Assembly: GCA_043799545.1 (NCBI GenBank)
Contig: JAZDNO010000002.1
Location: 32,001 to 96,000 of the forward strand
Direction of reading: 5' to 3'
DNA: 64,000 bases
Source of the DNA: Methanobacteriota archaeon
Lineage (GTDB): Archaea > Thermoplasmatota > Thermoplasmata > SG8-5 > DAIRED01
Under the pieces are notes generated by a model. It was not told the origin of the DNA. It saw nothing but the letters and a program-made list of their open reading frames with translations, and made no database searches. The position numbers and the translations under genes are program-made. Position 1 is the first letter of the stretch; every line of letters begins with the position of its first letter. Positions 3,803 to 62,097 of this stretch are shown piece after piece.

Positions 3803-3816
3803 CTCTATTCACACTC

Positions 3817-4295: not shown

Positions 4296-4299
4296 TTTC

Positions 4300-4566: not shown

Positions 4567-4574
4567 GTTCCCGC

Positions 4575-4874: not shown

Positions 4875-5074
4875 TACTTCTTTGCCTCCCGTTCGATTGT
4901 CTTCAGCCTGGCGATGTTCGTCCTGATGGCCCGGAGCTTGCCCGGGTTGGCCGGCGCGCCGCCCATCGACGCCACGCCGCGCTCGTACATGAGGTCGTTC
5001 TTCAGCTCCGCGAGCTTCGCCTTCTGGTCCTCGATGCTCAGCGCCCTGATGTCCTTCGTCTTAAGCAGTGCCAT
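4874..5074 (-). CDS. rpl29: 50S ribosomal protein L29
   Basis: [11 protein letters not shown]...[18 protein letters not shown]. Confidence 0.96.
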
Positions 5075-21917: not shown

Positions 21918-21960
21918 CAAATCTCAGCTTCAAATAATAAATAAGTGGGGGCGCTGGGAT
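21918..21960. repeat. Inner att copy: tRNA-Trp 3'-end duplication (copy 2), left boundary of the element
   Basis: AAGTGGGGGCGCTGGGAT (21943-21960) is identical to 42517-42534. Confidence 0.88.
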
Positions 21961-41574: not shown

Positions 41575-42495
41575 ATGCGTAATCCAGCATATCTCATCAG
41601 AGCTAACGAGTGGCTCGATGGCCTCAGGAAGAAGAACTATAGTGAGATGACAACGCGCAAGGCTTATCGTTGGCCGCTAATGGCCGCGTACAGGGCTCTA
41701 AAGAGCAAAGGATATCCTACACAGATTAGATCTATCGGTTCAGAAGCCGCATTATTCGTTATTCAGGATGTTTTCCATGGACGCGCTAAAGACATCGCAG
41801 CATGGAACCGGTTCTTGCTAGCCAACAAGAATCCGGTCATCGAGATGCTGGAGTACCACGTCAATCCAAGCACGAGAAGCACCGTGGATTGGCTGAACCT
41901 AGAGAAAGGCGAGGACTTCGCCGTTTGGGAAGCCGCGCGAGAAATCAGGGAAAAAGCCCTGATTCACTCGGAACTTTACCTTGGCATGCGCAGGATATCC
42001 GTCCAGCGGTTCCAGCTTTCATGGTTCAATGGACAGAGCATAAACATCCATGGCAAAGGGCGGGGAGGCGGCAAATGGCGTACGATAGCGCCGCACAAAG
42101 ATACTGCCGAGTTGTTCGCAACCGTAAAAGAGCATAATTCCCAGCTTGCCAAGAAAGCCGGTTCAGACTCATATCCCGACAATATGATGTTGTGCGTGAA
42201 AGGTACGAACCTCAGGAAATACGGGTTCACTTCGTTGGACAACATCGTCAAGCGGGTTTCCGTCAGGTCCGGGATAGAATTCAGCCACCACACGTTGAGG
42301 AGAACCGCAGGCCGTAGGATGTGGAAGGCAGGAATCGCCATCGAGAGCATCGCGAGGTTCCTCGGGCACTCCGACATTAGGATGACCATGTTATATATCG
42401 GCGCTAACTACGACGATACCGAGGCGGCGATGCGAGCCGCCGAGAAATGGGACGAAGAACGTAAACGGTCCGCGAACGGTACAGGGGGTCCATGA
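41575..42495 (+). CDS. int: Tyrosine recombinase/integrase (intact, not split by the att site)
   Basis: Catalytic set: LGMRR (R), GKGRGGKWR (K), HTLRR (HxxR), LGHSD (H) and TMLYI (Y); the gene ends 25 bp before the tRNA 3' end. Confidence 0.93.
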   Translation: MRNPAYLIRANEWLDGLRKKNYSEMTTRKAYRWPLMAAYRALKSKGYPTQIRSIGSEAALFVIQDVFHGRAKDIAAWNRFLLANKNPVIEMLEYHVNPSTRSTVDWLNLEKGEDFAVWEAAREIREKALIHSELYLGMRRISVQRFQLSWFNGQSINIHGKGRGGGKWRTIAPHKDTAELFATVKEHNSQLAKKAGSDSYPDNMMLCVKGTNLRKYGFTSLDNIVKRVSVRSGIEFSHHTLRRTAGRRMWKAGIAIESIARFLGHSDIRMTMLYIGANYDDTEAAMRAAEKWDEERKRSANGTGGP

Positions 42496-42519
42496 GCCAG
42501 CAAATCCAAAAAATAGAAG

Positions 42520-42695
42520 TGGGGGCGCTGGGATTTGAACCCAGATCAGCGGGTTTCTTCCACGCCGGGAGCTACCCGGCGCGTTTTCTGAACTACGGGT
42601 CAGCGCTCCAGTCATACATCACTTCTTCAGCAAACCCGTTGGCAATCATGCCCGTAACTGGAGCCCGCGAGGATACCGTGTTACCCCACACCCCC
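42520..42695 (-). tRNA. trnW: tRNA-Trp (CCA) with a 103-nt intron at position 37/38
   Basis: 5' exon GGGGGTGTGGGGTAACACGGTATCCTCGCGGGCTCCAG (42695-42658), 3' exon ACCCGCTGATCTGGGTTCAAATCCCAGCGCCCCCA (42554-42520); full cloverleaf with CCA anticodon. Confidence 0.97.
42555..42657 (-). ncRNA. tRNA-Trp intron encoding a box C/D guide RNA (predicted targets Cm34 and Cm39 of its own tRNA)
   Basis: Boxes ATGATT (C), CTGA (D'), GTGATG (C') and CTGA (D). Guides CGGGTTTG and ACTGGAGCG pair with the exon junctions, with the +5 nucleotide opposite C39 and C34. Confidence 0.9.
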
Positions 42696-43004
42696 ACCAT
42701 TTCCGGGAGCGCAGACGTTTCGGGCTGCCCGACGGCACACACCGTCAGGCAGCGGCAGTTCAACTAGCGCTTGCGCAATTTCTGGGCGCGCTTTCGTCTT
42801 CGCATCTTCTTCTTGCGCCACTTCCAGCGCTGCTTGCCGCGCTTTTTCCACGCTCTGGAGCTTCGCTTCATTCAGTTTCCTCGCTGAAGTCGGGTAATAG
42901 CTGGTTGTTAATATGGTTTTGGGATGGCTCAAGCGGGTCGCGGGTGCAAAGGACGACAAATTATATTAGCCCCTTCGCACGTGGCGAGCCATATCCTTTT
43001 ACGC

Positions 43005-43079
43005 GGGCACGTGGCCTAGACCGGATATGGCGCCGGCCTTCTAAGCCGGAGGTCCCGGGTTCGAATCCCGGTGTGCCCG
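43005..43079 (+). tRNA. trnR: tRNA-Arg (TCT)
   Basis: GGGCACG acceptor, CCGGC-CTTCTAA-GCCGG anticodon arm, CCGGG-TTCGAAT-CCCGG T arm; CCA end not encoded. Confidence 0.96.
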
Positions 43080-43214
43080 CTTTTCATATTCCAGCGATGA
43101 TTGCTGAAGAAAAGCGGAACTACTAGCGGTCTGGATTTATCAGTCGGAGCGGAGCTGGTCCGGTCCGCTTATCCAAGCGCCATCCATTTATATCCAAAGG
43201 TTGATGTTCGGCGC

Positions 43215-43787
43215 GTGTCCCATCTGTACCCCTGGGGCGGCGAGTACGTCGTCGGCAACCCGGACAGCTGCGTCGCGGCCGTCACGCTTTCGGAATACAT
43301 CAGGCTGCCAATTGACGAGGTCGCAATACACGGCCACATGAAGACGGAGAACCTGGGAATCGAGAAGGTCGTCGCGAACGTCGTGTCCAATCCCAACATC
43401 CGTTTCCTGATAGTCTGCGGCAAGGAGGTCCGGGGCCACCGCTCTGGCGACACAATCCTGGCAATCCACAGGAACGGCATCGACGGAAACAACAAGGTCT
43501 TGGATGCAAAAGGGGCGGTCCCGTTCATCGAGAACCTGACCAAGGAGGCTGTCGAGCGTTTCCGCCATCAGGTTGAAATCGTCGACATGATTGGCGAGTG
43601 CGACCCTGAAAAAATCATGGCCAGGGCAAGGGAATGCGCCGCCAATAATCCGGGCTCGCTCGGCGAGCCGTTCATAGCGATAAAAATTGAGGGCCAGAAG
43701 AAAAAGGCGGACGTGTCGGGGATGCTGGCGCTCCACAGCTCGCTGAGGGTCGACCCGTATTTCGAAATGTCTGAGCTGGAGGGATGA
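43215..43787 (+). CDS. mtrA: Soluble MtrA/MtxA-type corrinoid protein (no membrane anchor)
   Basis: YVVGNPDSCVAAVTL, KTENLGIEKVVANVVSNPNIRFLIVCG.EV.GH.SG (cobalt-ligand His), GAVPFIENL, AVERFR.QVEIVDMI and PF motifs. GTG start lies 27 bp after a TTTATA box (probably leaderless). Confidence 0.9.
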   Translation: MSHLYPWGGEYVVGNPDSCVAAVTLSEYIRLPIDEVAIHGHMKTENLGIEKVVANVVSNPNIRFLIVCGKEVRGHRSGDTILAIHRNGIDGNNKVLDAKGAVPFIENLTKEAVERFRHQVEIVDMIGECDPEKIMARARECAANNPGSLGEPFIAIKIEGQKKKADVSGMLALHSSLRVDPYFEMSELEG

Positions 43788-43819
43788 GATGCCTGCGCGG
43801 TGCTGGAGGGTGTTGTAGG

Positions 43820-44743
43820 ATGTTCGGATTCGCAACTGAGCAGAAGAAGTTCAAGGTCATGGGCGCCGTTTTCGGAGGACAGCCAGGTGAGAACCCAACT
43901 ATTCTGTTTGGAACAGTCCTGTTCGGGAAGAAGTACCTGGCATTGGGCGCGCCGGAGAAGGAAGAGGTGAGGGGTTTCATCGCACAACAGGGAGAGTATG
44001 CCAAGCTGACTGGAAACCCGGCGGTCGTGGACGTATTCATAGATTCCATGGAGCGCGTCGCTGAGCGGCTGGAACTGGTGGCCAGCGCGTGGGACGGCCC
44101 CTTCTCCCTGGACGTTCCGGAATCCGAGGTCCGCATCGAGGCGCTGAAACACTGCGCGAAAACCGGGCTGCTGGACCGCGCGATTTATAATTCACTCAAC
44201 CTTGGTGTCACCGAGGATGAAATTAAAACTCTAGCGAAGCACACGCCCGCAGCAGTAATCTGCCTGGCATACAATCCGAAGGACTTTTCCACCGATGGAC
44301 GGTTGGCGATGCTCAAGTCCGGGGGCGGAATCCTCGACAAAGGGCTCGTTCAAACCGCCAACGACATCGGCGCAGACAACCTCCTGCTGGACACCGGAGC
44401 CACTCCGTTCGAGCACAGCGCCGCCGAGTGCCTGCGCGCGATTCCGGTCTTCAAGCACGAGTTCGGGCGTCCGGTCGGATGCGCGATACACAACACCGTC
44501 GAGAGCTGGCTCTGGATGAAGGCCTGGCGCAAGGAGCACAAGGCGCAGTACGAGCTCTGCGACGCCGGCTCGAACCTCATGCCGATCCTGATGGGCGCGA
44601 GCTACTGCGTGTACGGCCCGATGCGGAACGCCCCTATGGTATTCCCAGCGGCTGCGATGGCGGACAAGTTCGTCTCCGAGGGGGCCGAGGACTACTTCGG
44701 GGTCGCCCCGGCAGAGGGCCATCCGAGGAGGAAGCTCGGTTGA
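43820..44743 (+). CDS. mtrH: MtrH/MtxH-type methyl-pterin:corrinoid methyltransferase
   Basis: FGGQPGENPTILFGT, GNPAVVD, IYNSLN, LLDTGATP and G.PVGCAIHN..SWLW motifs; GGAGG SD before ATG 43820. Confidence 0.88.
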   Translation: MFGFATEQKKFKVMGAVFGGQPGENPTILFGTVLFGKKYLALGAPEKEEVRGFIAQQGEYAKLTGNPAVVDVFIDSMERVAERLELVASAWDGPFSLDVPESEVRIEALKHCAKTGLLDRAIYNSLNLGVTEDEIKTLAKHTPAAVICLAYNPKDFSTDGRLAMLKSGGGILDKGLVQTANDIGADNLLLDTGATPFEHSAAECLRAIPVFKHEFGRPVGCAIHNTVESWLWMKAWRKEHKAQYELCDAGSNLMPILMGASYCVYGPMRNAPMVFPAAAMADKFVSEGAEDYFGVAPAEGHPRRKLG

Positions 44744-45651
44744 GCCGCCCGTTCGCGCCGCTGGCTGCGACGGTGGTCGGCAGTTTTCCCGCAAAGCCCG
44801 CGATGAAAATGATGGCGGCCAGCTATCGCGACGGCTCGGACCCGTTCGTCGCATCGCTTGAGGGGAGCGTGAAAGCCCAGCTCGGCGCGGGAATAGATAT
44901 CGTTTCAGATGGTCAGACCCGCGACACGATGGTCAACCTCTTCGCCAAGGGGCTGAGGGGCGTGAGGATGCGCGAGCGTCCGGCCGTTGTGAGGGAGATA
45001 GAATGGATTTCCCCCATCACCCTAGAAGACCAGAAGCATGCGAAGAGCCTCCTGCCCCCTGAAAAGAAGCTCAAGGGAATCATCACCGGGCCATTCACCA
45101 TGGCCAAGGGCCTGGAAGACAAATTCTACGGCAGCGCGGAGAATATGGCCTTCGCCCTCGCGGAAGCGATGAACAAGGAGGCGCGCTCCCTCGAACCGTT
45201 CGTCGACGTCATCCAGTTCGACGAGCCTTTCTTCTCCGTCGAATGGCCAGAATTCGCCCAGGTGCTTGTCGAGACCGCCAGGCGCGGGCTGTCCAAGCCT
45301 GTAGCGTTGCACGTATGCGGCGACGTGGCCCCGATCTTCGACAAGCTTACCGAGCTTCCGGTAGACCTGCTGGACCACGAGTTCGCGGCGCATCCCGAAC
45401 TGCTGGCGACGGTCGCGGACGTGTCGTTCAGGCAGAGCCTGGGATTCGGATGCGTGCGCTCCGATAAGAACGAGGTCGACCGGTTGGGCGATGTTGTCTC
45501 GCTCGTCCGCGAGGCCATTGACCGCCTTGGCGCGGAACGCATGCTCCTCGACCCGGACTGCGGGTTGAGACATCTGGACGAGCCAGTCGCCCGCGCGAAG
45601 CTGGAGACTGTCGTCCGCGCTCGGAACGAAGTGCTGGCCATGCTTCGCTGA
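44740..45651 (+). CDS. Core (single-barrel) MetE-like methionine synthase, MesA-type methylcorrinoid:homocysteine methyltransferase
   Basis: TVVGSFP, GIDIVSDGQTR, GIITGPFT, IQFDEP, Zn ligands LHVCG / DHEF / DPDCGLR; ~303 aa, lacking the N-terminal folate-binding half; TTG start overlaps the mtrH stop. Confidence 0.88.
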   Translation: MSRPFAPLAATVVGSFPAKPAMKMMAASYRDGSDPFVASLEGSVKAQLGAGIDIVSDGQTRDTMVNLFAKGLRGVRMRERPAVVREIEWISPITLEDQKHAKSLLPPEKKLKGIITGPFTMAKGLEDKFYGSAENMAFALAEAMNKEARSLEPFVDVIQFDEPFFSVEWPEFAQVLVETARRGLSKPVALHVCGDVAPIFDKLTELPVDLLDHEFAAHPELLATVADVSFRQSLGFGCVRSDKNEVDRLGDVVSLVREAIDRLGAERMLLDPDCGLRHLDEPVARAKLETVVRARNEVLAMLR

Positions 45652-45701
45652 GCCGGGAGTTGGCGAAGGGGTTAAGTACGTCAGCGGCGATTTGACCCAC
45701 G

Positions 45702-47795
45702 ATGACCCTGCGGCCCCGCGCTTTCACGGTCGTTCTCGCATCAGCGTTGCTCGTGTCGAGCATCGTCGTCTGCCTGGCATCGCCCCGCGCTGGCGCGGCC
45801 TCGTGGACCGACGACTTCGCCGGCACGGCGTTCGACCCCAGATGGACTTTCCACGGCGACGGCCTGCCGATGCTCGACAACGATACGCACTGGTTCGCGC
45901 TATATCATGACGTCGCGAACGAGACGGCAGGGGTCTGGAGGGGTCCCGCCATCAGGGCGCAGACAGCCGACGCATACGAATTCGACGTTAGCGCGACGAT
46001 GAGGTGCATCGCCGGCGAGGAGCCTGTCGGCAGGGCGGAGGTGCGCCTGCTCGATTCCGCTGGCGCTTCGATATACGCTTTCAGCTGGACCGACCCCGCC
46101 AACACCAACAACGCCGCGCAGGTGTCGTTCTTTTCCGGCGCGGCGGATATGTTGATGTACACCACGGGCGCAACGTACGACTACTCGATATTCATGGACA
46201 AGTCGCTTAGGCTGGCACGGCTGTCCGGTCAGGTATCGTTCTACATAGACGGGGCGCTGAAGTATTCGGGCACGACCCAGGCGGCCAAGGTCTCCACAAT
46301 CCAGCTCGCGCTGCTGAAGGACACGGACATCTGCCCGCTGAGCAAGGAGGACATGACGTTCGACAGCGTCTCCCTCGATTACACGGCGGCTCTGACGCCG
46401 TCGGCGCCCACCGGGCTCGCCGCGGCACCTTCGAACGGAGCGGCCTCGCTCTCGTGGTCGTCACCGGATGTGGGAACGGGCGCCCCCGTGATTGGCTACC
46501 GCATCTACAGGGGATACTCGTCCGGGAACGAGCTCTTCCTCACCTCGGTCGGCCCCACCCCTTTCTACAACGACTCGGGATTGACGAACGGACAGCCCTA
46601 TTTCTACAAGGTCAGCGCGGTTTCGGGGCTGGGGGAGGGCGCGATCTCCACCGAGGCCTCGGCCGTGCCGAGGACCGTGCCGGGCCAGCCCGTCAACCTG
46701 CAGACCGTCGGCAGCCCATCGCGTGTCAGCCTCACGTGGTCCCCCCCCGCAGACGACGGCGGCTCGGCGGTCATAGGTTACAAGGTCTACCGTGGAACCC
46801 AATCCGGTTCGCCGTCGTTGCTGGCCGCCCTCGGAGCGGTCGTTTCCTACGACGACGCGGCGGTGACGGCCGATTCGTCATACTACTATTCGGTCAGCGC
46901 AGTGAACGGCGCGGGCGAGGGTGCCCAATCGGGGGAGGCACATGCCAGCACACTCTCCGGCACCACCCTTCCTTCAGCTCCCAGGGATCTCGCGGCTCTT
47001 TCAACAAATGGCACGGTCGCCCTGAGCTGGAGCGCGCCGCTATCGAACGGCAACACCCTCATCGACCATTACTCTGTCTACAGGGGGGCATCGTCAGGAG
47101 AGAGGGCGTGGCTCGCGGACGTAGCTGGAATTCCCGGCTACGCCGACGCTGCCGTAACGGCGGGCCGCACCTACTACTACACCGTCACGGCGACGAATGC
47201 CGCGGGGGAGAGCCCGACCTCTGGCGAAGCGAGGGTCACCGTAGCGGGGACGACGGTCCTGACGGAGCCATCAGAGCCGCTGAACCTCACTCTCCAGACG
47301 GGGGACGGTTTCGTCCTGCTGACGTGGGAGAGCCCCGCCGACGACGGCGGCAGTCCCATCACGTCGTACAAGGTCTACAGAGGTTCGACGCCCTCCGCGC
47401 AGGCGTTGCTTGTAGAATTCGGTCCGGTGAACGGTTACTCCGATACGGATTTGGCGAGCGGCGATACCTACTGTTACGCGGTCTCGGCCGTGAACGCCGT
47501 CGGCGAGGGGGCGGCCTCCGCCACAGCGAATGTCACGATAGCCTCGGAGCAGAGCGTCACCAACGAAACGGAGACGGACGACACGTCGCAGCTGAGCCAC
47601 TGGACCTGGAAGTCGTCGGTCGTGATGCTCGTCCTGCTCGTCATAGGAAGCGCGGGGATTCTGTGGTACATGAGAACGCCGGAATCCCCTTCACAACCTG
47701 GCGACCCACTGAAGGGCTCAGGTGAAAAGCCAGACGAGAGCGTTGATGGCGAGTCCGATGAGGATGCCGCCGACGAAGAAGGTGGCCACGATTAG
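45702..47795 (+). CDS. Exported protein with four fibronectin type III domains and a C-terminal TM helix
   Basis: Signal peptide, repeated LSW..P...G...Y..YRG...Y.D......YYY.V.AVN..GEG motifs, TM helix and acidic tail. Confidence 0.88.
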   Translation: MTLRPRAFTVVLASALLVSSIVVCLASPRAGAASWTDDFAGTAFDPRWTFHGDGLPMLDNDTHWFALYHDVANETAGVWRGPAIRAQTADAYEFDVSATMRCIAGEEPVGRAEVRLLDSAGASIYAFSWTDPANTNNAAQVSFFSGAADMLMYTTGATYDYSIFMDKSLRLARLSGQVSFYIDGALKYSGTTQAAKVSTIQLALLKDTDICPLSKEDMTFDSVSLDYTAALTPSAPTGLAAAPSNGAASLSWSSPDVGTGAPVIGYRIYRGYSSGNELFLTSVGPTPFYNDSGLTNGQPYFYKVSAVSGLGEGAISTEASAVPRTVPGQPVNLQTVGSPSRVSLTWSPPADDGGSAVIGYKVYRGTQSGSPSLLAALGAVVSYDDAAVTADSSYYYSVSAVNGAGEGAQSGEAHASTLSGTTLPSAPRDLAALSTNGTVALSWSAPLSNGNTLIDHYSVYRGASSGERAWLADVAGIPGYADAAVTAGRTYYYTVTATNAAGESPTSGEARVTVAGTTVLTEPSEPLNLTLQTGDGFVLLTWESPADDGGSPITSYKVYRGSTPSAQALLVEFGPVNGYSDTDLASGDTYCYAVSAVNAVGEGAASATANVTIASEQSVTNETETDDTSQLSHWTWKSSVVMLVLLVIGSAGILWYMRTPESPSQPGDPLKGSGEKPDESVDGESDEDAADEEGGHD

Positions 47796-48881
47796 AACGG
47801 TCACCTTCTTGCCGAACGTCGCGTTGAGCACCGGTATGGCCGAGATGCAGATGGCGTTGCCGCATATCGCGAACGCTATCGCGTGGCCGAGGGGCAGCCC
47901 GAAGGCAAGGAGCGGAGCCAGTATGATCACGTCCTCGCCGGAGCAGATGAAAATCGGTATGGCTATCAAGACCAGCAGCACTAGCCCGGGTATGCTCCCT
48001 ATGACGTCCGCCCTGTCGCCGATGAACGATACGATCATCTCTTCGTTCAGATAGGTCGCGATTATCGACCCGAGGAGAATCCCGAGGAAGATGAACTTCA
48101 TCAGGTACATGAGCTGGTCCCAGCCGGCGAGCAGCGCCGATGTGCGCGTCTGGTATGACTTCGACGAGCGGCATCCCTCGCACGAGTAGCATCCAGCGCG
48201 CGCGTCCCCTGGTTCCTTCACGCCAGCGAAACGCTCTATCAGCACCCCAGCGCTCATCGCGATGACGAAGACGGATATTATCTCGATGACCAGGTACTCC
48301 CAGCCTATCCTTGCGACCGCGAGGACCATGACCATCGGGCTTAGTATCGGCACGACGACCAGGAACGTGATGACAGCCCGCACGCGCATCTGCTTGCCAA
48401 GCATCATGCCATGCGCGAGCGGGACACCGGCGCACGAGCATATCGGGATGACCGATGCGAACAGGCCCGCGCCGAGCATGCTCTTCGGCAGGCGAAGCTT
48501 GCCCAACGTCATGTATTTGATGACGAAGCCAGCCAGTATGCACCCCCACACAAACCACGGCGCTATCCCGAGCAGGTCCTTGTAGACATAATCGAGGTAG
48601 CTAGCTTCCCCCTCCCCGGACGAAGTCTCGGCCTTGCACCACCAGCAGTACATGTAGAGGAAGATGGAGAATACGGCCATGACGGCCATGAACCACCACT
48701 TGGCCCTGTCCGAGATTTCGAGACTCCCGCCGATGCGGTTCAACCATTCGTCGAACGGCTTGGATCGCTTCCGAACGGATTCTGAGACGAATGCCCAGAC
48801 TACATACACGACAAGGGCGATGCTGAGAATCCAGTGGACCCCGAAACCATCTACGTACAGTTCCAGCGCGGCCATCGCCAT
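47718..48881 (-). CDS. ArsP/DUF318-like permease
   Basis: IPICSCAGVP, TFLVVVPILSP and IPIFICSGED motifs; two TM bundles separated by a GCYSCEGC loop. Confidence 0.82.
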   Translation of the reverse strand: MAMAALELYVDGFGVHWILSIALVVYVVWAFVSESVRKRSKPFDEWLNRIGGSLEISDRAKWWFMAVMAVFSIFLYMYCWWCKAETSSGEGEASYLDYVYKDLLGIAPWFVWGCILAGFVIKYMTLGKLRLPKSMLGAGLFASVIPICSCAGVPLAHGMMLGKQMRVRAVITFLVVVPILSPMVMVLAVARIGWEYLVIEIISVFVIAMSAGVLIERFAGVKEPGDARAGCYSCEGCRSSKSYQTRTSALLAGWDQLMYLMKFIFLGILLGSIIATYLNEEMIVSFIGDRADVIGSIPGLVLLVLIAIPIFICSGEDVIILAPLLAFGLPLGHAIAFAICGNAICISAIPVLNATFGKKVTVLIVATFFVGGILIGLAINALVWLFT

Positions 48882-48981
48882 AGTTTAACCGCACGAGCTA
48901 TTTATATTCTGCCACAATCTGGTTTGTTTCGAGCAAAATTTATTATATGACACAGGATTGTTATCTGACGAGGTCCGACGA

Positions 48982-51900
48982 ATGCGCTTCAATCCCGCTG
49001 CCACAACTCTAGCACTCGCAGTCATGATGCTCACGGCATCGCTCCACGCGTTACCGGCGGCTGGAAAGGTTGAGGGCGGAGAGACCCCGAACGACATCGA
49101 ATACGTCCCGGGCGATTGGTACGTCGCTAGTAGCGAGTGGAGGAATGACACTACCGTCATCCTCAGGGGGAACCTCATCGTCCCGACTGGCGCCACTCTA
49201 GCGTTCCGCAACGTAACGCTGAAGATGGACTGCACGCTCTCCGACGGGCAGTATCGCGTCGAGGTCCGGCCCGGCGGGAGGTTCTACGCAAACGATACTG
49301 ACGGCGATCCATCCACGGCCGGGGACGCACCCGTCATTGCGAACAACGGTACGATTTACGGCTTCGCGCTCCAGGTCAACGAGAGCGGCGTCTTCGAGCT
49401 CAGGAACGGCGCACTCACCAAGTGCGGTTTGCTCCACGGACAGGTTGGCGCGGGCGTTTCCGGCCCGAGGTTGCTCTCCGACAACGCCGCGCTCGTCGGC
49501 AGCGAGATATATGGGTGCGCGAACGGAGTCGTGGTCGATTCGGCCAATGCTACGATAACGGGATGCACCATAAGGAACAACCTGTTCAACGGCGTGTATG
49601 TGACGAACCTGTCCGTACCGTCCCACAGGTTCTCGTTCGATGTCAACAACTCAAACATCTCGGGCAACGCTGGGGCCGGGGTCGATGTCAACGTCGACTA
49701 CCTGGATGCACATCTGGCGGATAACGAGTTGTGGTCGAACGGCAAGGGGGGGGTCCTTCTCAAAGGGGCGATGTTCTGCAACGCGACGCTGAGCCGGAAC
49801 ATCCTTGGCAAGAATTTCGAGCCGGGGACGATTGGATTCTTCGCCTCGCCTGGCGGGTCCGTCGATGCGTCGATGGACAACAACACCCTGGTGGCGAACA
49901 ACGGCACGCAGGTGCGAGCCGGCATCGAGAACACTGGTTCGTCCTATCTCGACGAAATCTCCGCCCGGAGCGTCGAGTTGGATGCGATCGACAACGTCAT
50001 AGACAGCGACGGCGCGTTCGCGGGGTTCTTCGCCCTGGCGACGGAACGCATCAGGACGAACCTATCTCGCAACGAGATACACACGGACGGGAGCAGCTAC
50101 GGAGCGATTCACGTCGGGAAACTGGCTTACGGCAAGGTCAACAACCAAGCGGCCACCGGGAGCGTCAGCGTCGAATTGGTCGGAAACAACATCTCCAACA
50201 AGGACGGGGGGGCCCTCAAGATAACCGCGCTCCGCCGCCTCTGGGTAAATATGACGGACAACAACCTGACCAACCTAGTGTCGCTGTGCGGCGGTATGTC
50301 CTTCGGCTGGCTCTCCGACAGCATTGACGACTCGACGCCCGACACCGCGGACATTCTCGTTTTGAACAACCGCTTCAAGGACGTGGAGGGCTCGAATGGA
50401 CTGTGGATGAAGGCCGTGTACGACCTGAACGCGACCGTGGAGAACAACACGTTCAAAAACATTCTCGGGGGGGCCCTGAGACTCGGCTGGCTGTCCGATG
50501 TCGATTCAAACTACGCACCGCTGCCGTGGGCCTACCCGACCAGGAATGTCAGGGCAAAGGTCTGCAACAACGTCATCTCCGGGGGTTCGGGCCCTGGAAT
50601 ATGGATATACTCGTCCAACGGGAGCCAGGTCTTCTCCAATACTGTCTCGTGGAAGTACGGCAACTACTACCCGTACATGGGGGACGGCATCCGCATCCAA
50701 TCCACCAACAAGCCAACGTTCGTCCATCACAACACCATTGTTGACTGCTCGATGGTCGGGATACGGCTCTTCAACGCAACCGGCGCTTCGGTCTACGACA
50801 ACACACTCTCGTCGAACATCTACGGTCTCGGATTCGAATCGCAGGCGAGGGGGAACACGCTCTGGAGAAACGTTGTAACCAAGACGACGAGCGAATACGG
50901 TTATTACCTGACCGTAGATTCTCTCAACAACTCGATACCGGTAAACAACACGGTCCAGGGTTCCTATCTCAAGTTAATCCACGGCTTGCACGGCACGCCC
51001 ATCGTCCTCGCCACGTTCCCTCCGTGGAACGAGCAGGTGCACCTCATGTCCAACCTGGGTCAGATAATCGTCGGCGACTCGACGTACCTGGACATACAAG
51101 GACACGTCGCGAAGAACGGCTCTGCGGGCTTGTGCCTCTCGAACGTGACGCACTCGCTCGTCCGCGGCAACGCGCTGTCCAGCAATCAAGCCCTTGGCGG
51201 CTCCGGCTTGGACCTGAGGACGGGTTCAGCATGGAACGTCGTCCGGGGCAACACGCTCTCGTCGAATACGAGAGGGATCTCATTCAACACCATGGCTGCA
51301 GAGAATACGCTGTGGTCGAACACTGTGACAAAGGCGGCCTCCCAGACGGGGCTCTGGTTCGACACTCAATCGAGGTGGTTGCGAAACATCATCCCGGCGA
51401 ACAACACGGTCAACGGCGTCTCCATGAGGTATTACCATTCCGTGAGCGGGTTCTCGCTGGACGGCGCATCGGTAAACGTCCCGCTCATGACGAACCTCGG
51501 TCAAGTTACAGCGGTGAACTGCACGGGACTGTCTCTGTCCAACATCACGTTGATAGGCGCATCAGGGGCGAGCGGAATCTACCTGCACGCGACCGACGGA
51601 GTCACCATCCTCGATTCGTCGGTCTCAGGGAGCTACATGGGCCTCTACGCCAGGGATTCGGACGGACTGCTTCTCCGGGATGTCTCTCTCAACCAGGGAA
51701 CCTACAACTGCGACCTCTACAACGTAGCGAACGTCGTCATCGAGGGGTGCAACCTGGACAACGGGGCGACCCTGCTGTACCTCCGATCCACGTCCCCGAC
51801 AATCCGCAACTCCTCAATCAATGGCGCCTCCTACCTGGCATTCAACCTCTCCTCCGGAAGCAAGGCGAAGCTGCTGAACACGACGCTCCAGAGGAACAGC

Positions 51901-53496
51901 GCCACTGTCTCCGCGGACTCGTCCCTCGAGGTCAGCTGGTATCTCCACACCCTGGTGCAATGCAATAATATGGTGGTCGGATTCGCGGCGCTTCGCCTCA
52001 CGAACGTCACGGGCGCTACGGTCCTGAACGCACTGACAGACGGTTCAGGCAGGATGAGGAACGTCGCGGTTCCTGAGTTCAAGCTCGATGGCGCAGCCGG
52101 TCTAAAGATGTACAATCCATACAACCTGAACGTGACGAAAGCAGGCTACGGCTCGGCGGATGTCTTCGCACCGATGGACTCGACGACGGCACTCGTCGTG
52201 ATTCTGGATGACCGCACATCCCCTGTAACGACGGTCGGACCATCTTTGGACCGTTCGCCCGTCCTAGCCTCCAGGGGGAAGGTCTGGCTGAACGCGACCT
52301 TCGACGACAGAGTCACCGGCAACGGAACGATATCGAGGGGGGAATATGTCATCTCGGCAACGGCGACGCCGAACGGTGGGGGGACGGGGATGACGGCCGC
52401 GGACGGCGCGCTAGATTCCGCCTGCGAGACGCTCACCGCGCCCATTTCGATTGCAGGCTGGGTGGAGGGCTCGTACACCATCTGGACCCACGCCGCGGAC
52501 GCCGCTGGAAACTGGTGCCCCTGGCAACAAGCCCAACTCACCGTTAACGACGACCTTGGACCGAAACTGACGAAGGGGCCAACCGTGTCCCCCACGGCGG
52601 TCTCGACGGAGACTTCCAGGTTGTGGGTGAACGCCACTTTCGACGATTCGCTGACCGGAGGTTCCGACATGGCAGGCTGCTCGCTGACGGTATCGAACGG
52701 CTCGGGGGTCATTGGCCCCGCCCTCTATCCATACACGATTACGGCGACCGACGGGGCGTTTGACGAGGCGGCGGAGGGGCTGAGTGTCTCAATCGACTGC
52801 ACGCTTTGGGGAGTCGGGATTTACACGCTGAGTATCATGGGGAAGGATGAGAGGGGGAACCTCGGAAACGTCATCGCGCTAACTCTCAATGTCGCAGACA
52901 AGACTCCGCCATCCATCCCGACTGACTTCCGCGTTTCGACGGGGAATGGCACGCTCAAGCTTTCCTGGACGGCGGGTACTGAGGCGGACCTCGCCGGGTA
53001 CAGACTCTACAGATCATACGTCTCGGGCAAAAGCTACAGCCTAATCGCGAATGTCCCCGGTAACGACATCACATACCTGGACGTGGGCCTTGTCAACGGC
53101 GTGACCTACTACTACGTTCTGACGGCGGTCGATAACGCGACCGATCCCAACGAGTCCCCCCGTTCCATCGAAGTCTCCGGTAAACCGATGGCAGAAGCTG
53201 TGATTGACGACGGTGGCGACGGCAGCACGGACGACGGCGGCTCGGGTGACGACGGCGGCACGGACGACGGTGACTCGGATGACGGCGGCAGCACGGACGA
53301 CGGCGGCTCGGATGACGGCGTCGACACGGACGACGGCGGCGGCAGTGCAGACGATGACAGCGATGCGAACAAAACAGCAAGTGGCTCGGACCTTGACTCG
53401 GGGTTGCTCGGTGCCGCGGTCGCTGCCGTTATCCTATCGATTGTCGCAGCGTCCGCAATATACCGCAAGAAATCCTTGAGGAAGAGAGGCAAGTGA
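48982..53496 (+). CDS. Large surface protein: parallel beta-helix (NosD/pectin-lyase-like) repeats, Ig-like and FN3 domains, Asp/Gly linker, TM anchor
   Basis: Start MRFNP at 48982 (GAGGT SD); N..S.N...GI.L repeats; ADLAGYRLYRS...YYYVLTAVD FN3; DDGG repeats; C-terminal TM plus basic tail. Confidence 0.85.
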   Translation: MRFNPAATTLALAVMMLTASLHALPAAGKVEGGETPNDIEYVPGDWYVASSEWRNDTTVILRGNLIVPTGATLAFRNVTLKMDCTLSDGQYRVEVRPGGRFYANDTDGDPSTAGDAPVIANNGTIYGFALQVNESGVFELRNGALTKCGLLHGQVGAGVSGPRLLSDNAALVGSEIYGCANGVVVDSANATITGCTIRNNLFNGVYVTNLSVPSHRFSFDVNNSNISGNAGAGVDVNVDYLDAHLADNELWSNGKGGVLLKGAMFCNATLSRNILGKNFEPGTIGFFASPGGSVDASMDNNTLVANNGTQVRAGIENTGSSYLDEISARSVELDAIDNVIDSDGAFAGFFALATERIRTNLSRNEIHTDGSSYGAIHVGKLAYGKVNNQAATGSVSVELVGNNISNKDGGALKITALRRLWVNMTDNNLTNLVSLCGGMSFGWLSDSIDDSTPDTADILVLNNRFKDVEGSNGLWMKAVYDLNATVENNTFKNILGGALRLGWLSDVDSNYAPLPWAYPTRNVRAKVCNNVISGGSGPGIWIYSSNGSQVFSNTVSWKYGNYYPYMGDGIRIQSTNKPTFVHHNTIVDCSMVGIRLFNATGASVYDNTLSSNIYGLGFESQARGNTLWRNVVTKTTSEYGYYLTVDSLNNSIPVNNTVQGSYLKLIHGLHGTPIVLATFPPWNEQVHLMSNLGQIIVGDSTYLDIQGHVAKNGSAGLCLSNVTHSLVRGNALSSNQALGGSGLDLRTGSAWNVVRGNTLSSNTRGISFNTMAAENTLWSNTVTKAASQTGLWFDTQSRWLRNIIPANNTVNGVSMRYYHSVSGFSLDGASVNVPLMTNLGQVTAVNCTGLSLSNITLIGASGASGIYLHATDGVTILDSSVSGSYMGLYARDSDGLLLRDVSLNQGTYNCDLYNVANVVIEGCNLDNGATLLYLRSTSPTIRNSSINGASYLAFNLSSGSKAKLLNTTLQRNSATVSADSSLEVSWYLHTLVQCNNMVVGFAALRLTNVTGATVLNALTDGSGRMRNVAVPEFKLDGAAGLKMYNPYNLNVTKAGYGSADVFAPMDSTTALVVILDDRTSPVTTVGPSLDRSPVLASRGKVWLNATFDDRVTGNGTISRGEYVISATATPNGGGTGMTAADGALDSACETLTAPISIAGWVEGSYTIWTHAADAAGNWCPWQQAQLTVNDDLGPKLTKGPTVSPTAVSTETSRLWVNATFDDSLTGGSDMAGCSLTVSNGSGVIGPALYPYTITATDGAFDEAAEGLSVSIDCTLWGVGIYTLSIMGKDERGNLGNVIALTLNVADKTPPSIPTDFRVSTGNGTLKLSWTAGTEADLAGYRLYRSYVSGKSYSLIANVPGNDITYLDVGLVNGVTYYYVLTAVDNATDPNESPRSIEVSGKPMAEAVIDDGGDGSTDDGGSGDDGGTDDGDSDDGGSTDDGGSDDGVDTDDGGGSADDDSDANKTASGSDLDSGLLGAAVAAVILSIVAASAIYRKKSLRKRGK

Positions 53497-53626
53497 GCGC
53501 AGAGACCTTGCTCCTCGTGAATGCTGTTTCTGAAAAAATGATCTGAGAATCTGTCGGACAAATAAAAAGCCTTTAATAATATAGGTTATTACAGGGACGA
53601 TAATATTCTATAAGGAGGTTTGGAAA

Positions 53627-56600
53627 ATGGCGAAAATTCCCGAGAGAAGCGCGATAGCGAGCATAACATTGGTGTGCATGATGTTGGCCAGCACGTTCAC
53701 GGTGATGGCCGGAAGCCCGGCGCCACCGGACGACGGCGTCGACGGCCTGCAGTACATCGACGGGGACTGGATTGTTTCCGGTGCGGAGAGCTATACGGAC
53801 GAGATAATCGTCCTCAGCGGCAACCTGACGATACAGGGCGCCGGTTCCCTGACGCTCACGAACACGACGATACAGATGAACTGCACATACGGCAGGGAGT
53901 ACGGCATCACTGTCATGAGCGGCGGCGCGCTGTTCCTCTACGATGGCGGGGACGGTTTCACACCGATGGAAGCTGGCGACAGCGACCCCTCGGTCATCTC
54001 CGTGTACGACAACAACTATCACACGTTCATGATTGTGGAGACAAACGCGGTCTTCGAATCTGACATGAGCATAATAGAGTACGTCGGCACACTCGGTCAA
54101 GCAGGGTACGTTCGCAGCGGGGCGACCGCAGAGATCAACCTGGGCGAATGGCAGGGGGTCTCGAACGGCGAATTCCGCATCACCATCGACGGCGTCGCGC
54201 AAGACATCTCTGGGCTCGACTTCACCACGATTGGCTCGCTGACGGACGTGGCCGACATCATCACTGGCGGGATACAGGCTGCGGACACGACGCAGGGCTA
54301 CATCAACGCCGATTGCGACTGGGACGGCAGCCGGTTCATAATCTATTCCGGCACATACGCGGACAACATCGGGTCGCCCGACTCGACCGTCGCGCCGCTG
54401 CAGGCGCACTCCGCCCCGACGGGAACGGACATCTCCGGCCTGACGGCGAGCACGTTCGGCCTATATCTGGACCTCGCGGCGAACGCGCTCTCGGTCCCGA
54501 TGCTCTCTCCGGAGATGCAGGGGACTTGCTTCCAATCCGACAACGTGCAGATTTCCGAGTCGCTAATCCAATACAACGGGCACGGCCTCATCTTCGACAG
54601 CTGCATACCTACGGTCCTGTCATACAACAACATCTCCGACAACGACGGCTTCGGCTTGGGCATCGTCAACATCGCGGACCCCGGTTTCGACGCGACGGGC
54701 GCGCTGTCGGACAACAACGTGGTCTTGAACAGCGAGCAGGGGGTCTACGTCAACGCGGACTCCGTCGACCTGGACTTCTCCTTCCTGAACGTCTCCGAAA
54801 ACTCCTACGGAATAACGGTCATCGCGAACAGGACCATTGACATGACGGTCCTCGATTGCACAATCTGGCGAAACGACGGCTCCACTGACCAGGACAATGC
54901 GAGCCTTTACGTCTGGACCCCGCCGACGGGCAACATCAGCCTCACGGTCGAGAGCTCGGTAATCGCCGAGAACAACTGCGGCGGAGTGTGGGTCGGAACG
55001 AGCTATACCAACCCGGACATCTCGTCGGCCAACGTGCTCGCCTCTTTCGTAGGCAACAGGATTTTCGGCAACCAGGGCGGGAACAGGTACAACGCCATGG
55101 ACGACCTGGATTTGACCATGCGCCAAAACTATCTCGGCGGTTCCGACTATTATGATGAGGGTGGCCGGTATATAATTGGTTTCAACACGCAGGGATCTGG
55201 CAACGCCCCGTGCGATAACGTCACCTTAAACCTGATAGGCAACGAATTGAACTATGGAATGCCTTGGAACGGCTGGAGCATCACGCACGCATTCAGGGTT
55301 ATCGCGGACAACATCGTGGACGTCAACATCTCCGACAACAAAGTGCGCGGCGCATACGAACTGTACGGTTTGTTCATCATCGGCGACTCGTACGACCAAT
55401 ATTACCCCCAGGTGATCAACGCCCAGGTGTGGAACAACGATGTCGTTTTGCTCGATGACACGTCGAACAACGCCGAAATCAGGCACGTGTTCTTCTTCAA
55501 CGCCCTGCGCAACATCGACATCGAATTCATGAACAACTACTACTTCACTTCGATCAGGGGTTACTTCTGGACTAACTGGAACAAGGGCGGCCACCTATGG
55601 ATAGGCGGCGCGGACTTCTGCAACGCGACGATACAGGGAAACACCATGATACTCAAACCGATTGATTCGAGCACCGATTGGTCTTCCTCCGCCTATCACG
55701 GCCCGATGTACGTCTGGGCGAACCTTGAGCTGAACGTCGACGTGGTCGACAACTTCATCGACGTGCACGAGCTAGCGGACGACTCGTACGACGCGCCGTA
55801 CTTCATCATGTTCGGCGGCGACGAAGGGTTCTGGGACGAGCTCTGCCAGAACGTCACCCTCAACTTCGTCGACAACACGGTCAGGGAGACCATTTACGGT
55901 GGCGGCGAGGCGGGAATCGGGATGATACGCGTCCTTGCCGACGACCAGCTCGACTGCAACTTCACGGGGAACGACCTGACCTTCAACCACGTCGCGAGTT
56001 ATGGCAGCACGGCTGAGCTTGAAGGCATGGTGAAGCTCGGCGGCTGGAGCAACACCGAGGCCGAAGACGTGAATCTGATATTCAACGGCAACAACCTCCA
56101 AGGGAACTTCGGAGAAGATGTTGATGCCGGAGGAGCCCTGAGGGTCGTGGCGAACAACAACATCACCGCCGATTTGAACGACAACGTCATCCAGGGATGG
56201 TGGGGATACTCGCCGGACGATGAGGACAACGCCGAAGACTTCGGCGTGAGGATTGGGTACATCTGCCCCAACGATGGGATCACATCGGAGAACACCGTCG
56301 TGACCATGCGAAACAACGTAATCGGCCCCGGCGGAGTGGGGAGCGCCTTGGCTGTCGTTGCGAACAACAACGTTACGTTCTCATTCGACGGCGGCGAGGT
56401 GCAAGGCGCGTTCTACGGCGACTGCGGCGGAACCGGCAGCTTCGGGAATGAAATAACGTACGGAAACGGGATAATGCTCCTGGCCGAGAACTGCCTGACG
56501 GCGGACATCAAGGATGCCAACATCCACGACAACAGGGGCGCTGGCATCTTCATCGAGAGCGTGAACGACGCCACCGTGGAGATATCGAACAGCTTCGTGC

Positions 56601-59851: not shown

Positions 59852-59981
59852 GCCATCATGGAAAAAACCTTTTCACATTTCTTCTTTTATATCAATTCCG
59901 CAGATGTTCCACAGCGGGTGCGCCCCTCGAAGCATTTATATCCGTGAACGCATACCTCGAAAGAGACGGAGGCGAGGGCAC

Positions 59982-60332
59982 ATGGTAGAGACAAGGGAGG
60001 CGCAGCGCAACAGGGCAATGAAGTACGACCCGGCCGGGTTCTTTTTGATTTACCTGGACATCGAGAGGGACGAGATTGTCGCCGAGCATTACCTGAACGT
60101 CACGAAGGACAAGGACGCCCCCGCCACTGGAAAGCTGGCCCAGGTCATCACCGGCACGAGCGCCGAGGCCATCTGCCACACGATTTCGCGCATGGGCCTC
60201 ATCACCAGGCCAGAGCATTCCACTTATGTCGGGCGAGAGCTGCAGAAGGCGGACATCGCCCTCAGCGAGGGCATCAAGTACACGCAGGACGAGCCGCTCG
60301 ATTTCATGGCGCGCCGCAAGCGCTCGAAGTGA
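59982..60332 (+). CDS. DUF4346 family protein
   Basis: DPAGFFLIYLD, G.SAEAIC.TI, EH..YVGRELQKA and Y.QD.PL motifs; start MVETRE at 59982. Confidence 0.85.
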   Translation: MVETREAQRNRAMKYDPAGFFLIYLDIERDEIVAEHYLNVTKDKDAPATGKLAQVITGTSAEAICHTISRMGLITRPEHSTYVGRELQKADIALSEGIKYTQDEPLDFMARRKRSK

Positions 60333-61612: not shown

Positions 61613-62097
61613 TGCCAGTGCCGAACGATGCCAAGCGCCGTTTCATGGCGCTCGCGATAGACCAATCCCGGGAGGGCGTGCGCGAAGGCCAGACCCCTTT
61701 CGGGGCGTGCATTGTCAAGGACGGCGAGGTCGTAAGTTGCGCCCACAACAATGTTTGGGCCAGCACGGACATCACGGCTCACGCCGAAATCGTCGCGATA
61801 CGGGGGGCGTGCGCGAAGCTGGGAACGATTGACTTGTCCGGGTGCGACATCTACTCGACCACGGAGCCGTGCCCGATGTGCTTCAGCGCCATCCACTGGG
61901 CCAGAATCGGAGAAGTGGTTTTCGGGGCGTCCATAGCCGACGCAAAGGCGTATGGTTTCCACGAACTGCCAATATCGAACGAGGCGATGAAGGAGACGGG
62001 AAAAAGCCCCATAAAAATCACACGGGGATTCATGGCGAGGGAAGCGCTGGATGTTTTCGCGGAATGGGCGAAGAGCAAGGAAAAAAGGACGTATTGA
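61609..62097 (+). CDS. Zinc-dependent nucleoside/nucleobase deaminase (CDA/TadA/guanine deaminase fold)
   Basis: PFGACIV, DITAHAEIVAIR (HAE) and STTEPCPMCFSAIHW (PCxxC) motifs; ATGA overlap with the TPR gene. Confidence 0.92.
   Translation: MMPVPNDAKRRFMALAIDQSREGVREGQTPFGACIVKDGEVVSCAHNNVWASTDITAHAEIVAIRGACAKLGTIDLSGCDIYSTTEPCPMCFSAIHWARIGEVVFGASIADAKAYGFHELPISNEAMKETGKSPIKITRGFMAREALDVFAEWAKSKEKRTY

Follow-up and report, generated by a model that had tools for sequence, protein, structure and literature searches.

A conserved mtrA-mtrH-core metE-DUF4346 gene module as a candidate soluble cobamide-dependent methionine synthase in Thermoplasmatota

What feeds core methionine synthases in cells, and which function do MtrA and MtrH serve in archaea that are not methane producers? 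Both questions are raised by a locus from a Thermoplasmatota genome (2.06 Mb assembly, 94% complete) in which mtrA and mtrH directly precede a core metE gene. Free methylcobalamin, used in vitro with core synthases, has been held to be non-physiological since 1999 (PMC7005905, PMC7857596), and the role of MtrA/MtrH in archaea making no methane has been called "unclear" or "unknown" (PMC9635834, PMC11291895, bioRxiv 10.1101/2020.03.09.984617). A soluble B12 relay, involving just three or four small soluble proteins, would address the first question, and methionine synthesis is the role that we offer in answer to the second. Our literature search found no paper describing an mtrA-mtrH-core metE-DUF4346 operon.

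Gene layout and protein identities

The original prediction had described three packed co-oriented genes with a 32-bp gap, a TTGA overlap and a TATA box. The gene boundaries and the element CATTTATATCC in the window (the whole 64-kb stretch of DNA that was analysed) agreed with this description, and the three-gene arrangement and the gene identities were confirmed:

43185-43195, + strand: TATA-like 11-mer CATTTATATCC, promoter core, 20 nt 5′ of the mtrA GTG
43215-43787, + strand: mtrA, GTG start, 190 aa, soluble MtrA-type corrinoid protein (Pfam PF04208)
43820-44743, + strand: mtrH, 307 aa, methyl-pterin:corrinoid methyltransferase homologue, pterin-binding (Pfam PF02007)
44740-45651, + strand: core metE (single-barrel), putative MesA-like methylcorrinoid:homocysteine methyltransferase, TTG start, 303 aa (Pfam PF01717)

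The 32-bp spacer between mtrA and mtrH contained GGAGG 9 nt 5′ of the mtrH ATG, and the TTG start of metE overlapped the mtrH stop (TTGA). The 11-mer was present in two copies in the 64-kb window, compared to 0.03 expected, the second one being located 5′ of a DUF4346 gene. Its distance of 20 nt to the GTG was compatible with a leaderless mtrA transcript.

MtrA matched PF04208 (1.4e-57) and passed the NCBIfam model of the short-MtrA subfamily (NF002126, 172 bits, cutoff 161), while its score for the equivalog TIGR01111 (182) was under the cutoff of 249. When aligned with PDB 5LAA (1.3e-49), its His75 (EVRGHRSG) was placed on the cobalt ligand His84. The protein has 190 aa, compared to about 238-240 aa in full-length MtrA chains, and no membrane helix was found in it (highest 19-residue Kyte-Doolittle mean, 1.04), in line with the predicted retention of the ligand His and absence of a C-terminal membrane helix. 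MtrE, which was the subunit searched among MtrB-G, was not found in the genome. The lack of the C-terminal helix, the low hydropathy and the MtrE result together mark MtrA as a soluble paralogue rather than a subunit of the pump. A membrane Mtr complex encoded elsewhere and using these proteins was rejected, since no MtrE was found, MtrA was single and it carried no anchor. MtrH matched PF02007 (3.1e-72) and, weakly, Pterin_bind (PF00809), and its TIGR01114 score of 259.7 bits was just short of the equivalog cutoff (271.4).

MetE presented a single barrel with a match to PF01717 only (Meth_synt_2, 5.5e-34) and exceeded the cutoff of the NCBIfam methionine-synthase model NF002119 by a margin of 1.5 bits (259.5 versus 258). 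In the alignment with T. maritima MetE (1XPG), His191, Cys193, Glu214 and Cys274 corresponded to the zinc ligands, the homocysteine-binding motifs GSFP (residue 14) and DEP (residue 161) were both aligned, and a loop of about 12 residues of the tandem enzyme was absent. The predicted single barrel with intact zinc ligands and without the folate half was borne out by this alignment and by the genome search, in which neither Meth_synt_1 (PF08267) nor a full-length MetE was found. In a phylogenetic tree, the core MetE and every operon-linked MetE constituted one clade (support 100/99), with the other Thermoplasmatota MetE-like proteins outside. The only homologue labelled as methanogen (P0089, from a 'Methanopyri' MAG) was 47% identical to the core MetE and 91% identical to the MetE of two operon-type loci (L071 and L072).

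MtrA, MtrH and PF01717 genes were present in one copy each in the genome. Neither mcr (McrA) nor metH was found in this 94%-complete assembly, the latter searched as the MetH/BHMT homocysteine domain PF02574, which leaves the core MetE as the apparent sole methionine-synthase candidate. AdoHcyase was present, indicating that homocysteine must be remethylated. The genome also encoded further B12-binding proteins, indicating that cobamides are in use. CobS was found in none of nine genomes of the order searched, which implies that the cobamide must be imported. A reductive activase of the RACo/RamA type was not found.

Conservation of the gene order and the fourth gene

In the same order, MtrA was present in 19 out of 22 genomes and the order mtrA-mtrH-metE was kept in all 18 further loci fetched. 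The phylum sample of 401 genomes contained 60 with a short MtrA, and in 53 of these a same-strand MetE followed about 1 kb further downstream; in four of the seven exceptions, no more than about 1 kb lay between MtrA and a contig end. In metagenomes, mtrA was followed by mtrH in 46/46 loci having at least 1.6 kb of upstream sequence, and mtrH abutted metE in 68/68. The arrangement held down to 36-40% protein identity, and the short MtrA and the operon-type MetE clade showed near-perfect co-occurrence in the phylum sample. The synteny survey thus upheld the expected linkage, and coincidence was rejected as its explanation. A MAG labelled 'Aenigmatarchaeota' was discarded as a second-phylum case because its phylum survey returned the same genomes as the phylum of the window. 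The longer MtrAH pairs of the Methanomassiliicoccales type had neither operon-type MetE nor DUF4346, indicating that not every orphan pair is explained; a biosynthetic role for orphan MtrAH/MtxAH pairs in general, as originally suggested, did not hold.

The proposed three-part unit stood as regards mtrA, mtrH and core metE, but it was not complete, since a fourth conserved gene, DUF4346, had been overlooked. The comparative data indicate a conserved unit made up of four genes. In the window, the fourth gene was located further downstream:

45652-59920, no strand: 14.3-kb insertion with an fn3 surface protein, an ArsP-type permease and two giant surface proteins (Pfam), outside the system
59933-59943, + strand: second copy of CATTTATATCC, 39 nt 5′ of the DUF4346 ATG
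59982-60332, + strand: PF14251 (PterinBD-DUF4346) gene, 116 aa (3.1e-24, 86 bits versus a cutoff of 29.6)

In a same-genus relative (L004), metE was followed by DUF4346 across a 76-bp spacer, and positions 3415-5101 of that locus matched 59922-61613 of the window; this contiguity indicates that the 14.3-kb insertion displaced the DUF4346 gene here. A metagenome relative (L060) carried the insertion too, at least in its left part. The four genes would accordingly be read here as two transcription units split by the insertion, both behind CATTTATATCC.

DUF4346 was located directly 3′ of metE in 54 out of 59 genomes and in 61 out of 65 metagenome loci. In the phylum sample, DUF4346 and short MtrA, each present in 60 genomes, had 58 genomes in common. 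Natural MetE-DUF4346 fusions were found in P0072, P0091, P0101 and L078, the last one within an mtrA-mtrH operon. A word index and a protein atlas returned no fused or related DUF4346 forms, while a full HMM search did; 16 of the 20 long forms sampled from it were MtrA-DUF4346 fusions, one also with a thymidylate-synthase-like domain, and fusions to Pterin_bind and to thymidylate-synthase-like domains were found as well. The AlphaFold model of the DUF4346 protein (pLDDT 86) comprised three strands and two helices. A natural MetE-DUF4346 fusion was modelled with each domain confident and the linker disordered (pLDDT 91, pTM 0.73). Neither sequence nor Foldseek searches gave a significant match in the PDB, and no match to DUF4346 was found in the searchable literature. 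Its evolutionary fusion with either MetE or MtrA suggests a probable role of the domain in docking or capping the corrinoid protein.

Methyl relay, methyl donor and alternative readings

We consider it likely that mtrA-mtrH-metE-DUF4346 encodes a soluble multi-protein cobamide-dependent methionine synthase, in other words a counterpart of MetH with its functions divided among several proteins. MtrH would bind a methyl-pterin, most likely 5-methyl-tetrahydrofolate from MTHFR, and would methylate the Co(I) cobamide on soluble MtrA. Methyl-Co(III)-MtrA would then dock onto the single-barrel MesA-like MetE, where a zinc-activated homocysteine thiolate would accept the methyl group, so that methionine is formed and Co(I) restored. 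Gene identities, catalytic residues, synteny, co-occurrence and fusions are shown by the data, whereas the direction in which the methyl group flows, the identity of the pterin and any physical complex among these proteins are inferred. The comparative context strongly supports the relay idea, and the route from methyl-pterin through MtrH, MtrA and MetE to homocysteine, as originally proposed, gained from the synteny, the sole synthase candidate, AdoHcyase and the adjacency of MTHFR. As for the pterin, folate appears likelier than H4MPT or H4SPT.

The MTHFR gene overlapped or abutted mtrA in L005, L006, L007, L032 and L034, an MTHFR-like gene was present in five metagenome loci, and MTHFR was found in 5/5 other operon genomes searched and in 8/8 same-order relatives. 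Mer was found in none of five genomes searched, and FolD was present in the source genome. In the source assembly, no MTHFR was found by Pfam, by tblastn with three divergent queries or by synteny with the MTHFR locus of a relative. The adjacency of MTHFR to mtrA in relatives, the presence of FolD and the failure to find Mer in the five genomes favour folate over H4MPT/H4SPT as the probable pterin.

The fusions of DUF4346 to pterin enzymes (Pterin_bind and thymidylate-synthase-like domains) could also be read as pointing to a direct folate-dependent synthase, in which DUF4346 replaces the N-terminal barrel and MetE uses methyl-folate itself, MtrA and MtrH being merely co-located and serving another acceptor. 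The four MetE-DUF4346 fusions would fit such an enzyme, as would three genomes (G103, G033 and G260) in which MetE and DUF4346 were adjacent although mtrAH was located elsewhere. We regard it as unlikely, because the predominance of MtrA fusions among the long DUF4346 proteins sampled speaks for a link with the corrinoid protein and not with folate binding, short MtrA and the MetE clade co-occur almost perfectly, mtrH abuts metE in all 68 metagenome loci, and characterised core MetEs use methylcobalamin, not methyl-THF (PMC7005905).

A catabolic relay in reverse, resembling the MT1-CoP-MT2 system MtgBCA, would have the MetE-like barrel demethylate a methylated thiol or methionine onto MtrA, with MtrH passing the methyl group to a pterin, where it would be oxidised or assimilated. 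The corrinoid-to-THF direction is that of MtrH homologues like MtgA, whose model matched MtrH at 8e-48. Weak URO-D (MT2-like) Pfam matches in some MetE relatives and the presence of FolD agree with this direction, which is nevertheless very unlikely: MetE is the only methionine-synthase candidate of a genome that has AdoHcyase, the neighbour of mtrA in relatives is MTHFR, the enzyme that produces methyl-THF, and both the zinc site and the GSFP and DEP motifs are of the MetE type. Moving a methyl group from a thioether onto Co(I) is, moreover, thermodynamically unfavourable. In the literature, such genes have usually been assigned either to methyl-THF:CoM methyl transfer in Methanomassiliicoccales (PMC6147122) or to a route for the methyl group into the Wood-Ljungdahl pathway (PMC9635834). 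On this reading the module would be a non-biosynthetic methyltransferase remnant of lost methane metabolism, with coenzyme M, another thiol or a different substrate or cofactor as acceptor. This was the least probable of the explanations weighed, as McrA was not found, the barrel that partners MtrA and MtrH is a MetE and has the substrate motifs of one, and across whole orders of non-methanogens almost no genome lacks the module. Such near-universal retention fits an essential anabolic role.

If methionine synthesis by the soluble relay is true, Thermoplasmatota of sediments and groundwater rely, in whole orders, on imported cobamide for methionine, and metagenomic mtrAH matches, often taken as a sign of methane-related metabolism, would be read differently. 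The uncharacterised domain DUF4346 would gain a biochemical context. A broader possibility, which we put forward tentatively and consider rather doubtful, is that DUF4346 is a required docking/cap subunit specific to MtrA-type corrinoid proteins, joining MtrH, MtrA and MetE, and that the four-gene module represents the general physiological form of MesA-type synthases, possibly the anabolic ancestor of the membrane Mtr pump.

Comparison with known systems

The membrane MtrA-H complex (methyl-H4MPT:coenzyme M methyltransferase; PDB 5LAA, 5L8X and 8Q3V; PMC4915002, PMC10998594) has the MtrA fold family and the His ligand in common with the operon, whose MtrH is near the equivalog threshold, and the first half-reaction, from methyl-pterin to Co(I), would be identical. 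In contrast, the operon MtrA has no anchor, the genome search gave no MtrE and sodium pumping is not expected; the proposed acceptor is homocysteine via MetE instead of coenzyme M, and the donor is probably methyl-THF. The split MetH of Rhodobacterales (bmt, cbp and PGA1_c16040; also MtgCDE; PMC12366255, PMC12478193) and canonical MetH follow the same logic, the split form with a pterin-binding methyltransferase, a corrinoid protein and a zinc homocysteine methyltransferase as separate genes. The operon differs from both in its corrinoid protein, which is MtrA-type and not of the PF02310 fold, in its homocysteine module, a MetE barrel and not PF02574, in having no SAM-dependent reactivation domain and in the extra DUF4346 subunit.

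A corrinoid protein likewise feeds a core MetE in the pairing of MesB/core MetE with the Wood-Ljungdahl CoFeSP in Dehalococcoides (PMC7005905, PMC7857596). In Ca. Methanomethylicus, a neighbourhood of genes for a corrinoid protein, MtrH and MetE, noted in a single sentence rather than surveyed, likewise hints at an anabolic MtrH-corrinoid couple (PMC7886697). These cases differ in that the corrinoid protein is CoFeSP or MtbC-type, with no MtrA and no DUF4346. The core MetEs of methanogens and Dehalococcoides use methylcobalamin, and a corrinoid protein has been postulated as their real donor (PMC7005905, which also recounts the methylcobalamin:homocysteine methyltransferase of methanogens reported by Schroeder and Thauer in 1999). 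Price et al. (2021), whose criterion for MesA was an identity of about 40% or more to the characterised M. thermautotrophicus enzyme (MTH775), found MesA in methanogens only and predicted MtrA as its donor from the phyletic pattern alone (PMC7857596). The operon MetE resembles MesA in being a single (beta-alpha)8 barrel of about 300 aa that has the zinc site (His/Cys/Glu/Cys) but lacks the N-terminal half for folate binding; it passes the same NCBIfam model, and MtrA is the predicted donor for both. Unlike MesA, it is found in non-methanogens, where its translation is coupled to that of a dedicated soluble MtrA and MtrH; it is accompanied by DUF4346 and would probably draw its methyl groups from folate.

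The mtrA-mtrH-metE operon and its conservation

The operon recognized in the original prediction was confirmed, with its three genes, the 32-bp gap and the TTGA overlap of the metE start with the mtrH stop all found as described:

43215-43787, mtrA (GTG start, 190 aa)
43820-44743, mtrH (307 aa), after a 32-bp spacer
44740-45651, core metE (TTG start, 303 aa)

The predicted TATA box corresponded to CATTTATATCC, a TATA-like 11-mer located 20 nt upstream of the mtrA start, and a GGAGG motif preceded the mtrH ATG by 9 nt, inside the spacer. The three products matched their Pfam families (E-values of 1.4e-57 for MtrA, 3.1e-72 for MtrH and 5.5e-34 for Meth_synt_2). When compared to NCBIfam, MetE narrowly passed NF002119, a 306-position methionine-synthase model (259.5 bits, cutoff 258), MtrA passed only the short-MtrA subfamily model and MtrH fell slightly below the mtrH equivalog cutoff. 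Alignment placed the cobalt ligand His84 of the MtrA structure 5LAA on His75 of the EVRGHRSG motif, as anticipated. The expected lack of a C-terminal helix was also borne out: while full-length MtrA chains have 238-240 aa, the window MtrA stops about 50 residues earlier, and its maximum 19-residue hydropathy mean of 1.04 indicates that there is no membrane anchor. The zinc ligands of Thermotoga maritima MetE aligned with His191, Cys193, Glu214 and Cys274 of the window MetE, which retained the GSFP and DEP substrate motifs, whereas the loop of about 12 residues present in the tandem T. maritima enzyme was deleted.

The soluble MtrAs compared (window 43215-43787 and, in loci of relatives, L005 6001-6579, L025 7062-7628, L026 6806-7375 and L006 5989-6573) shared a C-terminal tail, GEP[FY]IAI[KR]I followed by a short gap and ALHS.L.V, in the place where the membrane helix would be. 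This conserved tail may be a docking peptide.

The synteny survey revealed that mtrA-mtrH-metE is a highly constant neighbourhood. Within the same order, MtrA was present in 19 of 22 genomes, the remaining three being 59-83% complete, and the gene order was kept in all 18 further loci fetched. Among the 401 genomes of the phylum sample, 60 carried a short high-scoring MtrA. In 53 of these 60, MetE was encoded on the strand of mtrA, the two Pfam hits being separated by a median of 1006 bp, the length of mtrH. The seven exceptions were G260, G033, G329 and G371, in which MtrA was at most about 1 kb from a contig end, G103 and G018, which had sequenced room after mtrA yet carried metE on a different contig, and G029. 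In one family of the phylum (f23), 50 of 53 genomes encoded MtrA and 49 encoded MetE. A metagenome scan using the MetE alignment as query returned 80 loci. Where the upstream sequence reached 1.6 kb or more (46 loci), mtrA-mtrH was always present, and where it reached 300 bp or more (68 loci), mtrH always abutted metE, the tblastn hits being a median of 9 bp apart. The order held even at 36-40% protein identity. The MetE of Proteinoplasmatales SG8-5 (P0048) was 99.7% identical to that of two loci carrying the full operon (L065 and L066); Zinke et al. (bioRxiv 10.1101/2020.03.09.984617) called the function of those Proteinoplasmatales mtrAH genes unknown.

A fourth gene, DUF4346, and its displacement

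Neighbour clustering showed that metE is directly followed, often with overlap of its stop, by a gene for a protein of about 110 aa, which belonged to PF14251 (PterinBD-DUF4346). It was found in 60 genomes of the phylum sample, 58 of which also had the short MtrA. In 54 out of 59 genomes it was located 65-167 bp from the Pfam hit of MetE, and it followed metE in 61 out of 65 informative metagenome loci. In G103, G033 and G260, DUF4346 remained with metE though mtrAH was elsewhere. In the window, the gene was displaced:

45652-59920, 14.3-kb insertion between metE and the DUF4346 gene
59982-60332, DUF4346 gene, displaced from metE

In the same-genus locus L004, metE was followed by a 76-bp spacer and then DUF4346, and its sequence from position 3415 on matched the window from 59922 on, indicating that the 14.3-kb block was inserted into this spacer. 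Its cargo comprised an ArsP-type permease and three surface proteins, one of the fn3 type (697 aa) and two giant ones of 1512 and 2074 aa. The insertion was absent from L004, and at least its left part was shared by the metagenome relative L060. The 64-kb window contained two copies of CATTTATATCC (0.03 expected), one per transcription unit, at 43185-43195 and at 59933-59943, the latter 39 nt upstream of the displaced gene. This suggests that the mtrA and DUF4346 units are still co-regulated.

A full HMM search returned 1261 DUF4346 proteins, and among 20 long ones sampled DUF4346 was fused most often to MtrA (15). Two others combined DUF6513, Pterin_bind and DUF4346, and single proteins carried MtrA with a thymidylate-synthase-like domain and DUF4346, the thymidylate-synthase-like domain with DUF4346, or no other family. 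MetE-DUF4346 fusions of 400-403 aa were also found (P0072, P0091 and P0101), and in locus L078 the gene directly behind mtrA and mtrH encoded a 401-aa MetE-DUF4346 protein, and an MTHFR gene was convergent to it. DUF4346 is thus joined to the corrinoid protein or to the homocysteine methyltransferase, as would be expected if it brings the two into contact. Its predicted model (pLDDT 86) had three strands and two helices and no PDB match, and no mention of the domain was found in the literature searched, mostly without subscription journals.

DUF4346 was located at the C-terminus of the MtrA domain in P0131, P0154, P0155, P0163, P0171, P0175, P0178, P0183, P0187, P0188, P0193, P0196, P0197, P0202, P0207 and P0213.

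Upstream of mtrA, a block at 21960-42510 had a GC content of 0.40-0.46, compared to about 0.60 in the flanks, and carried a tyrosine integrase gene (41575-42495) at its end. The L060 sequence jumps from window position 21960 to 42510, which indicates a 20.5-kb integrated element ending about 700 bp 5′ of mtrA. A segment of about 240 bp (42930-43166) containing tRNA-Arg(TCT) (43005-43080) was inverted relative to L004 and L060, in which this tRNA lies on the strand opposite mtrA; no flanking inverted repeat of at least 12 bp was found around it. On the minus strand, 42517-42653 was 93-94% conserved with L004 and L060 and gave two weak Rfam matches, one at 42517-42566 to a tRNA-like 3′ end and one at 42598-42653 to the C/D-box sRNA family sR3 (27 bits, gathering score 41). 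The stretch may serve as the attachment site of the island or encode a small RNA.

Genome content and the methyl donor

The genome assembly (2.06 Mb, 31 contigs, 94% complete) encoded one copy apiece of MtrA, MtrH and PF01717. Its named relatives were Thermoplasmatota MAGs and Proteinoplasmatales SG8-5, consistent with a Thermoplasmata archaeon. McrA, MtrE, a MetH/BHMT-type homocysteine domain and the Meth_synt_1 half were not found in the assembly. Since AdoHcyase is encoded, homocysteine is made and has to be remethylated. The genome also encoded FolD and small B12-binding proteins; no RACo/RamA-type activase was found in it. A search for CobS in nine genomes of the order gave no match, so cobamide is presumably imported.

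The original prediction had proposed methyl-H4MPT or methyl-H4SPT as donor. Here, a folate is favoured instead. In L005, the MTHFR gene runs into the start of mtrA (ATGA overlap), and in L006, L007, L032 and L034 it abuts mtrA. An MTHFR-like gene adjoined the operon in five metagenome loci, and MTHFR was detected in each of the five further operon genomes and the eight relatives from the same order that were searched for it. Five genomes were searched for Mer, and none had a match. The main local weakness of a folate model is MTHFR itself, which was detected in this 94%-complete assembly neither by Pfam nor by tblastn with three divergent MTHFRs; it may lie in the absent 6% or may have been truly lost.

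The operon-linked MTHFRs, directly 5′ of mtrA in L005, L006, L007, L032 and L034, were of a divergent type: those of genomes G002 and G003 shared 59% identity, versus 21-22% with the unlinked MTHFR of the same-genus G001.

Altogether, we consider it probable, from gene content and order, that the operon encodes a soluble relay in which methyl-folate made by MTHFR would be used by MtrH to methylate the cobamide on soluble MtrA, from which the MesA-like MetE would take the methyl group with the help of DUF4346. Gene identity and context are observed, and the rest of the relay is what we infer from them. The core of the earlier interpretation, from methyl-pterin through MtrH and soluble MtrA to core MetE and homocysteine, is thereby retained; the corrections concern its donor, more likely a folate, its three-gene set and its extension to orphan MtrAH pairs in general.

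Reach of the operon and related systems

In a maximum-likelihood tree, operon-linked MetEs, fused forms and Altiarchaeota- and ‘Methanopyri’-labelled proteins formed one clade (support 100/99), distinct from the MetE-like proteins (317-407 aa) that other Thermoplasmatota encode. The Altiarchaeota-labelled proteins shared 60-66% identity with the MetE encoded at L069, a locus with all four genes, which hints that the operon may extend beyond one phylum; a MAG labelled ‘Aenigmatarchaeota’ fell, like the window, within the GTDB phylum sampled here. The ‘Methanopyri’-labelled protein shared 91% identity with the MetEs of L071 and L072, located behind a short soluble mtrA-mtrH, so we do not claim a true methanogen MesA inside the clade. 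No DUF4346 was found within 2.5-6 kb downstream in these two loci. Either the ‘Methanopyri’ label or the assumption that the organism is a methanogen is open to question.

A longer MtrA (open frames of 255-289 aa) was present in 11 genomes of the phylum sample. The same kind of long MtrAH pair, described by Speth and Orphan (PMC6147122), occurred in seven loci of named Methanomassiliicoccales MAGs (L008-L014; 256-260 aa in the four MtrAs measured). All 11 genomes lacked the operon-type MetE and DUF4346, and PF01717 had no match in three named Methanomassiliicoccales MAGs. The role in methionine synthesis first suggested for orphan MtrAH pairs, whose function in non-methanogens has been termed unclear (PMC9635834, PMC11291895), thus covers one large class and not the Methanomassiliicoccales-type pairs.

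No description of an MtrA-MtrH-MetE-DUF4346 operon was found in the literature searched, mostly without subscription journals. According to Deobald et al. (PMC7005905), Schroeder and Thauer showed that methanogen core MetE uses methylcobalamin and proposed that its true donor is an unknown corrinoid protein, for which MtrH (MTH1156) and MTH124 were named as candidates. Price et al. (PMC7857596) reported MesA in methanogens only and predicted MtrA as its donor from phyletic patterns. Loh et al. (PMC7886697) remarked on a corrinoid protein-MtrH pair beside metE in Ca. Methanomethylicus, and split MetH systems are present in Rhodobacterales (PMC12366255, PMC12478193).
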